Assembly: GCA_048538235.1 (NCBI GenBank)
Contig: JBLYPX010000001.1
Span: 745,554 to 785,010, forward strand
Direction of reading: 5' to 3'
Length of the DNA: 39,457 nucleotides
Source of the DNA: Candidatus Komeilibacteria bacterium
Lineage (GTDB): Bacteria > Patescibacteriota > Patescibacteriia > UBA1558
Part shown: piece after piece, positions 21,283-33,374 of the stretch
Layout: each line of letters opens with the position of its first letter
How positions within the stretch are numbered: position 1 is the first letter of the stretch
Notes under the pieces: generated by a model
Told to the model about the DNA's origin: nothing
Seen by the model: only the letters and a program-made list of their open reading frames with translations
Databases searched by the model: none
Program-made: the position numbers and the translations under genes

Positions 21283-21314
21283 AAAAACACCCGTAGATAA
21301 ACGGGTGTTTTTTT
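21283..21314 (+). terminator. pnp terminator
   Basis: AAAAACACCCGT/ACGGGTGTTTTT stem plus T-run. Confidence 0.85.
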
Positions 21315-21328
21315 GTTACACTATAGTC

Positions 21329-22825
21329 ATGCTAAATTTCCTAAAAACAAATTGGTTTATTATTACCATCTGTATAATGCTTACAATTGTTTGTGTTTGG
21401 CTTATTAAAGTAGACTATTTTAAATACTCAATAGATTTAGATAAGCTATTACCTCAGGAAACAAAGCTTAGTATTAATTTAAACATGTCAGAGCTTAATA
21501 CCACAATTAATCAAAAGTCTAAGTTGTTAAAAAATAATGCTATAGGAAAAATACTAAACAATATAAACACAGAACTACAATCTACTTCTACTAATTACGA
21601 TATCTCCTGGCCCGAGAATATCATGAATTATATTGAACCAGAAATAATTTACTACATTACAGATGAAACAGAATGGGGGGTATTAGCCAAAGCTAATAAC
21701 AAGAAGTTATTATCTTACCTACAGTCATCCGGAGACTTAATAATATCTTCAACCTTTAATGATTTAAACATATATAAACTAACCACGAAAGATAATTCAA
21801 CCATATACTTCTCCTTTATAAACGGCAACACTCTTTCAATATCTTCAAGCCCAGACCTTGTTAAAACAAGTCTAGATAACTACGCAAATAATCCAGACTC
21901 TTCATGGCAACAGCGCTTCTCCATTATTAGCCTAGAGCCAATTCTTAGAATAAAAATAGATCCAAATGCTAATATTAAGCCAACAGATAACGGTATATTG
22001 GCTAAACTCTACCAAATTCTTGACCCTGTTTTACAAAAATCTGAAACAGACTTAAAACTTGAGTTTAATCAAACTGGTAATTATTTAACTTGGCAGATAT
22101 CAAACATTGGGGCAAGAAATTTTAACGCAGAATATAATAAAAACAATATTGCAGACAGCTTAACATATATAAACTTTAAACCTGACATATTGTTTGGCTC
22201 ATATGAACCAGATAAGCTTAATAACAATAAACTTGGGTCGAGTTTAGTTTGGCAAAGTCTCACAAATTATGCACTAAGCGCCACAAATGTAGACATCATA
22301 AAAGAATTAACAAATAAAATAAGAAGCAGTCTCTTAATAGCAATAAAAGATCAAACAAGCTTTATAGGAATTGTTAATAGAATAGATTTTGAAGCAACCA
22401 TTCAATTAATATATGAAATATTGGGTAAACAAAACCCCAAAAGTGTAGAGAAAATTCTGCCGGATGGTTCAAAATCCTACGAATTGATTGCAGACGAATC
22501 ACAAATACAAGAAAGAACCACAATGGTTGGAAATAAAGAAATTACAACTATATTTGCACCAAACGCAAACGCCACCTTTAATTACTATATTGATGGTAAG
22601 AAGATAATTATTAGCACTGATTATGATTTACTTGAAGAAAATCTAAAGTCTCCAATAAAAAACCCAAACCAATGCTTAATTAATACAAACTTTGCTGAAT
22701 TGCTATATTTTAACAACAAGGTAGAAAATCCATACATAAATAGCCAAAACCTAGAAGAATTCACTATTTTTGATCAAAGCTATAATGAAAATATAGTAAT
22801 AAAGGGTTGTTTAAGACTTAAATGA
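21329..22825 (+). CDS. Membrane-anchored hypothetical protein (possibly DUF3352-like)
   Basis: N-terminal TM then a long soluble domain; start moved to ATG 21329, 6 nt after TGtTACACT. Confidence 0.6.
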   Translation: MLNFLKTNWFIITICIMLTIVCVWLIKVDYFKYSIDLDKLLPQETKLSINLNMSELNTTINQKSKLLKNNAIGKILNNINTELQSTSTNYDISWPENIMNYIEPEIIYYITDETEWGVLAKANNKKLLSYLQSSGDLIISSTFNDLNIYKLTTKDNSTIYFSFINGNTLSISSSPDLVKTSLDNYANNPDSSWQQRFSIISLEPILRIKIDPNANIKPTDNGILAKLYQILDPVLQKSETDLKLEFNQTGNYLTWQISNIGARNFNAEYNKNNIADSLTYINFKPDILFGSYEPDKLNNNKLGSSLVWQSLTNYALSATNVDIIKELTNKIRSSLLIAIKDQTSFIGIVNRIDFEATIQLIYEILGKQNPKSVEKILPDGSKSYELIADESQIQERTTMVGNKEITTIFAPNANATFNYYIDGKKIIISTDYDLLEENLKSPIKNPNQCLINTNFAELLYFNNKVENPYINSQNLEEFTIFDQSYNENIVIKGCLRLK

Positions 22826-22963
22826 CCTGTGGATAATCTGTTAAGTAGTGAGTAAAACTTTTGTTCACAAAACTATAATTATAGAGACACTACCATATTT
22901 ATTTGCTAACTTTAGCCATAAAACACTGTTGACTTTTTCGTAAATTGATGATATAATGGATGT

Positions 22964-23308
22964 ATAGTAAAAGTACATTTATATATGAGATATTGCTTCA
23001 AAGCTATTTGTAGTAATTCTCAAGTATCTACTGTTATTAGTCAGCGTGACTCAGCCATGCTGCCCAAAAAACAAAAATGCAAAAAAATGCAAATAAAATA
23101 AAAATAAAAAGGTAATCCTCGCCTATTGCGGAGAAAACCATTTAAACGGTAGATATTAAGAGTTAGCTGAGATGCTCGAAATATTTTTTTGCTTCGATGT
23201 TTACAATTGCCCCCTGGCGATATGTAAGCGAAACAAGAAAACATTTAACGGGCGTTGAGGGCCATATATTAAATTTTTTTAGGGTTCATCACGCCCGTTT
23301 TATTTTTG
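22964..23308 (+). ncRNA. Candidate ~340-nt structured transcript of unknown family
   Basis: Promoter TTGACT(22929)-17-TATAAT(22952); several hairpins; terminal stem AACGGGCGT/ACGCCCGTT plus T-rich tail; only short ORFs inside. Confidence 0.45.
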
Positions 23309-23319
23309 CCAAAAAACCA

Positions 23320-23348
23320 TTGACATTTTACGTATTTTCCTTTATCCT
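23320..23348 (+). promoter_or_regulatory. Promoter for the dksA-like/lspA unit
   Basis: TTGACA-17-TATCCT. Confidence 0.65.
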
Positions 23349-23427
23349 TTAGGGGTAATTATTTACCTAAAGTAGCTAAAATAGCTATTTTATTGCAAAA
23401 AATAATATAAAAATTAACAATAAACAT

Positions 23428-23790
23428 ATGCTATCACAAGATTTCATAAACGCTAGAAAAGAAGAGTTATTAAAGAAAAAGGCTGAATTAGAGGAACAAT
23501 TGGGTTCTATTGTTAAAATTGATCGTCAAAGTACTGAATATGATGCAAAATTCCCAGATTTTGGAGATAAAGAGGATGAAAACGCTGCTGAAGTAGCCGC
23601 TTATCAAAACAACCTATCTTTAGAAGAAGATCTTAAATTCTCATTAAGCAGAATAGATAAAGCACTGCACAATATGGGAAATAATACCTATGGTCTTTGT
23701 GAGAAGTGTAATGCAGAAATTCAACCAGGAAGACTTGAAGCGTTCCCACAAGCAACGGTTTGTATGGATTGTAAACAAAAGGATATATAA
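23428..23790 (+). CDS. TraR/DksA C4-type zinc finger protein
   Basis: Coiled coil then YGLCEKC..RLEAFPQATVCMDC. Confidence 0.9.
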   Translation: MLSQDFINARKEELLKKKAELEEQLGSIVKIDRQSTEYDAKFPDFGDKEDENAAEVAAYQNNLSLEEDLKFSLSRIDKALHNMGNNTYGLCEKCNAEIQPGRLEAFPQATVCMDCKQKDI

Positions 23791-24233
23791 TGAAAAAATC
23801 ATATTTAGTAATAGTTACATTATTACTATTTATTATAGATAGAATAACAAAAATATTAGCCTTAAAGTTTTTAACTGATGGGCTTTTTTGTTGCAATCAA
23901 ATTGCAGGACTAAAACTATTACTAAATAATGGCGTTGCTTTTGGAATTCTAATTCCTAAAATATTAAGCATCACCTTAGCCAGTCTAATTATACTAATTT
24001 TAATAAATGTATTATTAAAAACAAAAACTAATCTTTTCCCTCTTCTAATTATTATAGCCGGGGCTTTTAGTAATATTTTAGATAGGCTTAATTATGATGC
24101 TGTTATAGACTTTATTACAATCAAATATATGCCCATTTTTAACCTAGCTGACATATATATAGTAATTGGGCTTATAATGCTCATATATGGCCTAAAATCG
24201 CCCAATAAAGACACTATTGCACATAATACGTAA
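23790..24233 (+). CDS. lspA: Lipoprotein signal peptidase II
   Basis: NNGVAFG, GAFSNILDR, VIDFI and FNLADIYI motifs. Confidence 0.9.
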   Translation: MKKSYLVIVTLLLFIIDRITKILALKFLTDGLFCCNQIAGLKLLLNNGVAFGILIPKILSITLASLIILILINVLLKTKTNLFPLLIIIAGAFSNILDRLNYDAVIDFITIKYMPIFNLADIYIVIGLIMLIYGLKSPNKDTIAHNT

Positions 24234-24320
24234 TATTTAATATATTACCTTGACAAAGCACTCTACGTGGTGTATTTTATTAAACTAGCCTTTTATAGAG
24301 ACGGCTATTTTAATGAACAT

Positions 24321-25460
24321 ATGCTAAGTCAAAAAAACCAAATAACTGAAAAAATTAGACAAGCAAAAAATATACTTTTACTTTCTAAGCAATATTATAG
24401 TGGCGATGACATCGCTACTCTTTTAGCTTGGCATATATTTTTAAATCAATTGGGCAAACACAATGATGTTGTTATTAGTGATTTTGTTTTAAAGGATCAT
24501 TATGGGTTTTTACCAGAAACAAATAACATTAAACCTAATCTACAAAAATTAAAAAAATTTACAATTGCTGTAGACATATCTCAAACAAAGCTAGATGATT
24601 TTAGTTATGATATTAAAGATAGCGAATTGCTTTTATACTTAACTCCTAGTAAAGGATTTGTTAATTACCAAGACGTTAAATTTAAAGATACTAACTTTAA
24701 ATATGATTTAATTATATGTTTAGGTGTACAAGACTATGAAGGTTTAGGAAAGATACACAATGAACATGCAGACTTTTTCTACCAAGTGCCATTAATAAAT
24801 ATAGATAATAATCATCAAAATGAAATGTTTGGTAATATTAATGAGGTGGATATAACAAAGACATCTGTTGCTGAAATGTCATATGATATTATGCAACAAA
24901 TAAATGCTGATGTAATAAATAAAGATATAGCACAATGTTTATTAACTGGTATTATAGACGCTACTAAGAGTTTTAAAACATCTACTGTTAACCCTCAGAC
25001 ACTACACCTGGCTAGTGATTTAATTAACCGGGGTGCAGATAGAAAAGAAATAATAGATAAATTATTTAATACAAAGTCTGTATCAATTCTAAAACTTTGG
25101 GGAAGGGTACTTGCTAGACTAAAAATAGATAATAAATACAAGATAGCGTGGTCTGCAATCAACCAAAATGATTTTATAAGATCTGGTGCTGCAGAAGAAG
25201 ATATGTCAGGTGTTATTGAAGAAATAATAATGACTTCACAAACAACCGAAATAGCTATAATATTCTATGCCCAGGAATACAGCAAGGTTAAAGTATATGT
25301 ATATAGCAGCAAAAGTTTTGATTCCCAGTTCCTAGCTAATGCCTATGAAACAACCGGTAATAAACAACTAGCCTGTTTTACTTTAAACAAACCAATTGAA
25401 GAGGTTGAAGAAGAAGTGATTGGTTCTATTACGAGAAAATTAAATAATTTACTGCCTTAA
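24321..25460 (+). CDS. DHH/NrnA-like phosphoesterase homolog with degenerate motifs
   Basis: NrnA-like organisation (CLLTGIIDATKSF; SILKLWGRVL), but motif I reads SGDDIA and the DHH position reads IDNNH. Confidence 0.75.
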   Translation: MLSQKNQITEKIRQAKNILLLSKQYYSGDDIATLLAWHIFLNQLGKHNDVVISDFVLKDHYGFLPETNNIKPNLQKLKKFTIAVDISQTKLDDFSYDIKDSELLLYLTPSKGFVNYQDVKFKDTNFKYDLIICLGVQDYEGLGKIHNEHADFFYQVPLINIDNNHQNEMFGNINEVDITKTSVAEMSYDIMQQINADVINKDIAQCLLTGIIDATKSFKTSTVNPQTLHLASDLINRGADRKEIIDKLFNTKSVSILKLWGRVLARLKIDNKYKIAWSAINQNDFIRSGAAEEDMSGVIEEIIMTSQTTEIAIIFYAQEYSKVKVYVYSSKSFDSQFLANAYETTGNKQLACFTLNKPIEEVEEEVIGSITRKLNNLLP

Positions 25461-25505: not shown

Positions 25506-25582
25506 GGGTGTATAGCTCAGCCGGTTAGAGCGCGGCTCTTATAAAGCCGAGGTCGATGGTTCAAGTCCATCTACACCCACCA
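25506..25582 (+). tRNA. tRNA-Ile(UAU)
   Basis: Acceptor GGGTGTA/TACACCC-ACCA; anticodon stem CGGCT/AGCCG, loop CT-TAT-AA. Confidence 0.92.
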
Positions 25583-29999: not shown

Positions 30000-30178
30000 A
30001 GTTAATTAACAATATATTATTAACTAACTACCAGCGATTATATTATAGGAAATACGATGAAACTAGCACATATGATGGCTATTAAGAAAATAAACACCAT
30101 TACAAGCTTTATACTGCCTGTAGAAGGTAACATAACTTATACTTTTAGTTATTTTATTTAACCTAAACAAAATAATTA

Positions 30179-33302
<3,124 letters not shown>

Positions 33303-33374
33303 CAAATATTTTGGCTAGGTTACTAAAAGTAGCACATTTATTTTTATTACAAATGCTCGTTATGTTACCTATGC

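Follow-up and report, generated by a model that had tools for sequence, protein, structure and literature searches.

A new structured RNA family with a predicted upstream DnaA box in Komeilibacteria and related Patescibacteria

We analyzed a 39,457-nucleotide (nt) stretch of DNA, hereafter the window, from a Candidatus Komeilibacteria bacterium whose genome is a single contig of 860 kb and 98.4% complete (GenBank assembly GCA_048538235.1, contig JBLYPX010000001.1). At 22929-23308 of the window, about 768.5 kb into the genome, a near-consensus promoter is followed by a non-coding unit of about 345 nt and a long terminator hairpin with a U-tail. This RNA is a new family, absent from Rfam, whose reality as a structured RNA is close to certain; seven helices and a kissing-loop pseudoknot are backed by covariation. 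As far as detectable by sequence and covariance searches, the family appears confined to one class of Patescibacteria that includes Komeilibacteria, Falkowbacteria and their relatives. Our best reading, to which we assign a probability of roughly 0.55, takes the locus as the gene of a stand-alone structured RNA that is predicted to be strongly transcribed, probably acts in trans and would have its transcription gated by DnaA. A previous reading of the sequence alone (the sequence-only reading) had described the locus as an orphan non-coding unit with several hairpins, and the present analysis bears this out: no Rfam family matches, no open reading frame (ORF) is conserved, and the structure shows compensatory changes.

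Promoter, terminator and conserved fold

The near-consensus promoter named in the sequence-only reading is present as TTGACT-17-TATAAT, which matches 11 of 12 positions, carries a TG extension and ranks first among the 11 promoter-like sites found at 22000-24500; such sites are not enriched in that region overall (11, compared with 14.7 in shuffles, standard deviation (sd) 3.8). The best site before the RNA in 34 homologous loci mostly reads TTGAC(N)-17-TATA(A/C)T, and over the 31 loci with dksA downstream the RNA promoter has a mean of 10.3/12. Transcription is predicted to start near 22964. At the other end, the terminal stem with a T-tail also proved correct. Its outer helix pairs AACGGGCGT (23247-23255) with ACGCCCGTT (23291-23299), its inner helix is GGGCC/GGTTC, its conserved 19-nt loop is AUAUAUUAAAUUUUUUUAG, and TTTTATTTTT follows. 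A terminator scan did not list this hairpin because its loop exceeds 8 nt, and we read it directly from the sequence. In a model-fitted alignment of 22 sequences (the order alignment), the outer helix was 97.3% paired with all nine pairs altered on both sides, and the GCCAYAUAAU...UUUAGGG of the terminator is retained out to loci labelled Falkowbacteria and Parcubacteria. The locus thus has, on predictions from sequence, the features of a stand-alone non-coding RNA gene, namely a promoter, an intrinsic terminator, a conserved structure and no conserved ORF.

The 345-nt RNA has a minimum free energy (MFE) of -93.8 kcal/mol, compared with -64.7 (sd 4.4) for shuffled sequences (z = -6.6), and none of 100 shuffles folds as well. 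Across the order alignment, 94.2% of 1690 cells were paired, as opposed to 63.2% after column shuffling and 43-48% with slid partners, and 87 of the 90 pairs were altered on both sides. A class-wide alignment of 30 sequences gave 95.5% paired, compared with 70.0%. Because an alignment fitted to a model leans toward the structure of that model, we re-examined the 5' domain on a plain MAFFT alignment of the 22 sequences, from which RNAalifold recovered P2 (14 pairs), P3 (6) and P4 (5), with 19 of these 25 pairs compensatory. In these alignments, compensatory base changes in the seven helices and the pseudoknot show selection on RNA pairing.

The covariation-supported structure consists of two domains (Table 1) and has no helix that brings the 5' and 3' ends together; the MFE fold does pair the ends, as an A-run against the U-tail, but covariation gives this no support. 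P2 closes a junction and was paired in 96.8% of cells in the order alignment and 95.4% class-wide; its core A-U, C-G and U-G pairs are near-invariant, and 10 of its 14 pairs on the plain MAFFT alignment carry compensatory changes. Within P2, every pair of P3 is altered on both sides, P4 (AUCCUCGC/GCGGAGAU) is widely conserved in the order, and the core of the A-rich tract is kept as AAAAYAAAAAYAAAA...AAAAAGG in both the order and the class alignments. Further downstream is P6, with an outer helix of AAATATTTTTTTGCTTC/GAAACAAGAAAACATTT and an inner part of GTTTACAATTGCC/GGCGATATGTAAGC, which RNAalifold also predicted from a four-sequence MAFFT alignment.

Much of the helix list in the sequence-only reading survives this comparison. 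Covariation supports its TGAGA...TCTCA helix (P1), its GGT..CTCGC/GCGGAG..ACC helix (P4), its GTTTACAATTGCC/GGCGATATGTAAGC helix (inner P6) and its terminator stem, and the A-rich tract that it took to be single-stranded is unpaired in every consensus structure. Two of its helices have to be replaced: the covarying helix at the place of AGTC/GACT is P3, CAGCGTG/CATGCTG, and the bases of TCGAA/TTCGA belong to outer P6. Its list did not include P2, the P5 hairpin or the pseudoknot between the P3 and P5 loops.

This pseudoknot ties P3, inside the junction closed by P2, to P5, just outside it. Across genomes the two loops change together, as CUCAAC/GUUGAG, CCAAC/GUUGG, CCUAAC/GUUAGG, CCUGAC/GUCAGG, CCGAC/GUCGG, CUUGAC/GUCAAG and CUUAC/GUAAG. 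On the plain MAFFT alignment of 22 sequences (P3 to P5), the pseudoknot was 95.5% paired and five of its six pairs were altered on both sides; at one position, for example, the pair is GC in 12 sequences, AU in 9 and UA in 1. P3 and the pseudoknot together were 95.9% paired, which fell to 27-39% when partner columns were slid by 1-3 positions. We also compared how well regions complement each other within their own sequence and across sequences, for every pairing of 13 regions; only the P3 loop and the P5 region stood out (own 5.19, cross-sequence 3.69), and no further long-range contact was found in this comparison. Complementarity between the A-rich tract and the terminator loop was 5.43 (own) compared with 5.16 (cross), in two regions that vary too little for the comparison. 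A wider-window version of the pseudoknot test was too noisy (own 6.59, cross 6.11; 6 of 1000 permutations reached the own mean). In class-level sequences, the same loop complement lies 2-17 nt past P2.

Table 1. Predicted features of the RNA locus and its neighbours, in window coordinates
Feature	Position	Strand	Details
Upstream ORF, 506 amino acids (aa)	21305..22825	+	No Pfam match
Perfect DnaA box TTATCCACA, predicted	22828..22836	-	About 136 nt before the RNA start
Palindrome TTTTGT-TC-ACAAAA	22859..22872		Kept in 5 genomes of the window's family
Palindrome GCTAAcTTTAGC	22905..22916		CTAA core 23 nt before the -35; candidate operator
Promoter	22929..22957	+	-35 TTGACT, 17-nt spacer, extended -10 TGATATAAT
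RNA	22964..23308	+	About 345 nt; 5' end placed from the -10 element, 3' end from the U-tail
P1 hairpin	22986..23022	+	15 bp; 90-99% of cells paired, 14/15 pairs altered on both sides
P2 long-range helix	23023-23035 with 23145-23157	+	13 bp; encloses P3, the A-rich tract and P4
P3 hairpin	23042..23062	+	7 bp, CAGCGTG/CATGCTG; loop ACUCAGC at 23049-23055
Kissing-loop pseudoknot	23050-23055 with 23166-23171	+	CUCAGC (P3 loop) with GCUGAG (P5 loop); covariation
Single-stranded A-rich tract	23063..23112	+	Conserved core AAAUAAAAUAAAAAUAAAAAGG at 23091-23112
P4 hairpin	23111..23139	+	GGUAAUCCUCGC ... GCGGAGAAAACC; 93.7-96.5% paired; recovered by RNAalifold on MAFFT
P5 hairpin	23160..23177	+	GAGU/GCUC stem; 4/4 pairs altered on both sides
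P6 long hairpin	23179..23246	+	15 + 13 bp; 82.5-98.7% paired, all 28 pairs altered on both sides
P7 terminator hairpin and U-tail	23247..23308	+	9 bp + 5 bp; hairpin 23247-23299, U-tail 23300-23308
Second promoter-like site	23320..23348	+	TTGACA-17-TATCCT, before the dksA-like gene
DksA/TraR-type zinc-finger gene	23428-23790	+	PF01258, E 1e-10
Signal peptidase II (LspA) gene	23790-24233	+	PF01252, E 2.7e-23

Distribution and comparison with known RNA families

By BLAST, the stretch is 80% identical in the congener over 1-385, and two further genera in the window's family reach 68-69%. R1, a covariance model made from the two sequences closest to each other, added two more genomes when searched at whole-genome scale. 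Over all searches it scored 399.7 bits for the window's RNA and 27-388 bits for homologues. Of 86 genomes in the order, 81 encode the DksA-like protein found downstream. The sequence-only reading had proposed that homologues be sought upstream of dksA-lspA, and R1 indeed found the RNA full-length and directly upstream at 18 of 25 dksA-homologue loci from two other families, and partially at one more. Related contigs are labelled Komeilibacteria, Falkowbacteria, Buchananbacteria and Parcubacteria; R1 matches extend to loci with Falkowbacteria and Parcubacteria labels, and there is a weaker one at a Doudnabacteria-labelled locus.

A second model (R2), built from the 5' domain only on the plain MAFFT alignment, was run on an even sample of 151 genomes of the class and matched 45 of them once each, a lower bound because strict filters were applied. 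In a phylum-wide sample of 151 genomes it matched two, the window's own genome and, weakly, one outside the class. Inside the order, R2 found the RNA upstream of dksA at 6/6 loci of one family (f6) and at the single locus of another (f4), and at none of the dksA loci of families f7 (0/6) and f3 (0/1). Four f7 genomes of 97-100% completeness likewise gave no match at any position. The RNA is thus common across the class without being universal; it is single-copy per genome and occurs in most families of the order, which comprises Komeilibacteria and kin. Family f7 keeps the dksA-like gene, and the DUF3352-like neighbour described below was not detected there either (0/6 loci).

The Rfam scan proposed in the sequence-only reading gave no match at the gathering score, over the 4227 families of Rfam 15, in the window region or in 20 homologous loci. 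With E values up to 10, the region 22700-23500 gave six weak matches, the top one being RsaOG with 22.3 bits against a threshold of 50; none of the six is a transfer-messenger RNA (tmRNA), RNase P, 6S, signal recognition particle (SRP), riboswitch or T-box model. The same reading had noted that the size resembles tmRNA or RNase P RNA and that the signature motifs of both are absent, and it was right to set both aside. For tmRNA (RF00023), ARAGORN found no gene in the window and the model gave no match in that region at E up to 10, and the genome's own tmRNA lies at 664087-664466 of the contig (96.4 bits). For RNase P RNA (RF00010), too, searches up to E 10 left the region empty, and the genome's own copy lies at 437321-437710 (191.7 bits). 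SRP RNA models (RF00169, RF01854) had no match in the region, and riboswitch and T-box models matched neither the region at E up to 10 nor the 20 loci at the gathering score. The 6S model (RF00013) had no match in the region or in the genome, and the RNA shows no rod-like fold. OLE, ROOL, GOLLD, raiA and the other catalogued large RNAs gave no Rfam 15 match at the gathering score. In the literature, including passages of PMC10768705, PMC8321541 and PMC11665869, we found no description of this RNA.

The closest parallels in kind are OLE, raiA, ROOL and GOLLD. Like them, the present RNA is lineage-restricted and several hundred nucleotides long, has many covarying helices and a pseudoknot, and combines a conserved gene neighbourhood with an orphan function; OLE, like the present RNA, has as its neighbour a membrane-protein gene without known function. 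It differs from them in lacking a match to their Rfam models, in its occurrence in Patescibacteria, in the predicted DnaA box and operator-like palindrome before its promoter and in its long conserved A-rich single strand. A second comparison is with CrcZ and CrcY of Pseudomonas, small RNAs with A-rich motifs that act as protein sponges. These share with the present RNA a length of about 400 nt and an exposed A-rich (A-R-N-like) strand that could sequester an RNA-binding protein. However, there is no homology, the present RNA has one long tract instead of several dispersed motifs and a far more elaborate tertiary structure, and a motif scan found no Hfq signature here.

Genomic neighbourhood and competing readings

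The conserved order of the locus is a gene for a DUF3352-like membrane protein, a DnaA box, the palindrome GCTAAnnTTAGC, the promoter, the RNA, the dksA-like gene and lspA. In phmmer comparisons, the upstream ORF (about 450-506 aa) falls into one cluster with the ORFs that precede the RNA at 15 of 20 class-level loci, and 1 of 10 clustered ORFs that were scanned matched DUF3352. As a possible obligate partner of the RNA, the protein was sought with a hidden Markov model of this cluster, which found it beside the RNA in 5/6 loci of family f6 and in none of five RNA-bearing loci of families f2 and f5.

The predicted DnaA box is one of only nine perfect boxes in the genome, which has a dnaA gene at 803 kb. 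If one mismatch is allowed, 21 of 22 order-level loci have a box between -132 and -161 relative to the RNA start, and 17 of these boxes are perfect; box density is 4.7 per kb upstream compared with 0.32 per kb elsewhere in the same loci. At class level, 25 of 27 loci carry one or more boxes in the 300 nt upstream and several hold 2-5, and boxes are retained in four of the five loci that lack dksA. Between box and promoter are two palindromes, both likely operators of putative regulators. At the place of the one at 22859-22872, other families carry TTGTCAA or TTGACA-N4-TGTCAA; the other has a CTAAnnTTAG core at exactly -23 from the -35 element in 20/21 order-level loci, is looser at class level and is found in 30/46 loci overall with a loose pattern.

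These elements suggest how a stand-alone RNA might work. DnaA, together with a putative dimeric DNA-binding protein, would set the level of the RNA and couple it to replication status. The RNA would end at its own terminator and act in trans, with the A-rich tract as a platform for a putative protein or RNA partner, so that it could serve as a sponge or scaffold. CrcZ and 6S RNA sequester their partners in a comparable way. Independence from dksA finds support at class level, where 5 of the 27 loci lack dksA and two of these have no co-oriented gene after the RNA at all. A number of points weigh on the other side. We infer the ends, abundance and stability of the RNA, and the DnaA box is itself a prediction from sequence. 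The full-length pair counts rest on model-fitted alignments that lean toward the model's structure. A scan of the genome found no Hfq signature (no Sm2-like motif in a plausible ORF), which is weak evidence given that the motif came from general knowledge. The RNA was not found in f7, and it is thus not indispensable to judge from genome searches.

The main rival is a cis-acting leader of dksA-lspA, which could be a riboswitch, a T-box or a protein-dependent attenuator. On this view the 5' domain would act as the sensor of a ligand or factor, and read-through into dksA would depend on the P3:P5 kissing loop, P6 and the terminator. We regard this as possible, though doubtful. What speaks for it, and also counts against a stand-alone RNA, is that the RNA lies on the same strand immediately before dksA in all order-level loci and in 22/27 class-level loci (lspA follows in 21/27), and that dksA starts after a spacer of 17-58 nt at three class-level loci, which is too short for a separate promoter. 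Three of the five dksA-less loci have another co-oriented gene directly after the RNA (by eye, one RNase HII-like, one CCA-enzyme-like and one unknown). The sequence of the terminator loop is also conserved beyond the needs of termination alone. Cobalamin riboswitches offer a precedent for kissing loops that link sensor domain and expression platform. Like T-boxes, they are terminator-ended leaders with a kissing loop; the present RNA resembles both in its co-oriented position upstream of a gene, its intrinsic terminator and its contact between loops of the 5' domain and downstream.

Other observations argue against a leader. No known riboswitch or T-box model matches, and no conserved antiterminator was seen by eye, where no systematic search was made; the single candidate seen in the window has no counterpart in a relative. 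Between the 5' domain and the terminator stand P5 and P6, well-conserved helices of about 90 nt in all, and near-consensus promoters are typical of stable-RNA genes. Two loci have no co-oriented gene downstream. The sequence-only reading had further stated that the next gene has its own promoter. This is only partly supported. In the window's family, a promoter-like TTGACA-17-TATCCT or TATTAT site follows the terminator in 5/5 genomes, and many other loci have a site with 9-11/12 matches; elsewhere the site is weaker, and three class-level loci have the short spacers. As a separate observation, the dksA leader (23343-23400, + strand) contains the hairpins CTTTAGG...CCTAAAG and TAGCTA-AAA-TAGCTA followed by TTTTATT, and no obvious Shine-Dalgarno sequence was read before the ATG of the dksA-like gene.

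A more specific form of the stand-alone reading, which we consider improbable as it stands, is a replication-gated regulatory RNA, abundant and compactly folded, in which DnaA occupancy would set the level and the exposed A-rich platform would sequester or scaffold a core machine, either polymerase with the DksA-like factor or the ribosome. In its polymerase version, this RNA may take over the role of 6S RNA, which is apparently absent from the class.

Slightly less probable still is that the RNA is a lineage-specific stand-in for 6S RNA, an abundant polymerase-binding RNA that works alongside the DksA-like factor. The idea draws on the strong sigma-70-type promoter, on the adjoining gene of the DksA family, whose members bind RNA polymerase, and on the predicted likeness of the two as single-copy, promoter-driven stable RNAs. 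The present RNA also occurs where the Rfam 6S model finds nothing: that model matched 0/121 genomes of the class, compared with 15/101 in a phylum sample (0/5 for the class members there), but it is weakly sensitive and matched only 5/14 control genomes. Against the idea, the covariation-supported fold lacks the closing stem between the 5' and 3' ends and the central bubble of 6S RNA, and at about 345 nt the RNA is roughly twice the size of 6S (about 185 nt). Its genomic context is also unlike that of 6S genes in Patescibacteria, since 0/12 of those loci are near dksA, lspA or the upstream protein and 11/12 have no DnaA box; neither RNA is detected in family f7. Positional orthology with the 6S genes of other classes was looked for and not found. 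In 9/12 of the fetched Patescibacteria loci, the 6S gene follows an ORF of 213-225 aa.

It is very unlikely that the locus is a DNA-level element, with the DnaA box and an AT-rich region serving as a replication origin or DnaA-titration site and no RNA gene. The conserved box, the 2-5 boxes in several class-level loci and an AT-rich tract that lies about 240 nt beyond the box would fit such an element. However, the compensatory changes in seven helices and the pseudoknot point to selection on RNA pairing, and the region is bracketed by a conserved promoter and terminator. Moreover, dnaA is 35 kb away and the cumulative GC-skew minimum lies at about 835 kb, while the RNA is at 768.5 kb; the position of dnaA and the GC skew rule out a replication origin at the locus. 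In three other genomes with both on one contig, dnaA is 112-223 kb from the RNA.

Least likely of all is an mRNA for a small protein, be it the 38-aa product of 22985-23101 or another. The sequence-only reading had seen no substantial ORF, and this 38-aa frame is the longest from ATG in the RNA region; its sole counterpart is a 35-aa version in the congener, with 50% protein identity over 36 aa where the DNA is 80% identical, and it is absent from the remaining 20 of the 22 aligned homologues, whose longest sense ORFs differ in place and frame, while other shared peptides are short and confined to close relatives and the alignment indels are not multiples of three.

Other observations and meaning for the hosts

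Two RNA genes elsewhere in the window deserve mention. The match to 23S rRNA at 30174-33305 (- strand) spans 3132 nt compared with a model of 2925 positions, and the gene therefore holds about 200 nt extra, in the form of insertions or of an intron. At 25506-25582 (+ strand) there is a tRNA-Ile with anticodon UAU; such a tRNA is an uncommon bacterial way to read AUA. In the genome as a whole, no SRP RNA was found at E up to 10, nor was one found in 31 relatives, and neither the Ffh M domain nor an SRP54-type GTPase was found in the genome, where no ORF has two of three motifs of the SRP GTPase that we took from general knowledge. Searches for the SRP GTPase gave only weak, partial P-loop matches (at most 29.4 bits) in 81 genomes of the class and matched 0/61 genomes of the phylum at E 1e-10, compared with 14/14 control genomes. 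Either SRP has been lost throughout the phylum or the search has a blind spot, and our literature search found no publication on missing SRP components.

Large RNAs with many helices and conserved tertiary contacts are rare in bacteria, and those that are understood are ribozymes or cores of important ribonucleoprotein machines. The present RNA is single-copy and class-wide and has a DnaA box at a fixed distance, which suggests a link between replication control and its role. Its hosts have genomes of about 1 Mb with little spare DNA, and their regulation is almost unknown. The family offers a testable target in the form of a 345-nt sequence, a pseudoknotted structural model and a promoter with two candidate operator sites. 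As a new catalogue family, it would make a stretch of about 0.4 kb that now counts as "intergenic" annotatable in hundreds of genomes of the Candidate Phyla Radiation. If the replication-gated form were true, the RNA would provide a direct link from the status of chromosome replication to global gene expression in ultra-small bacteria.

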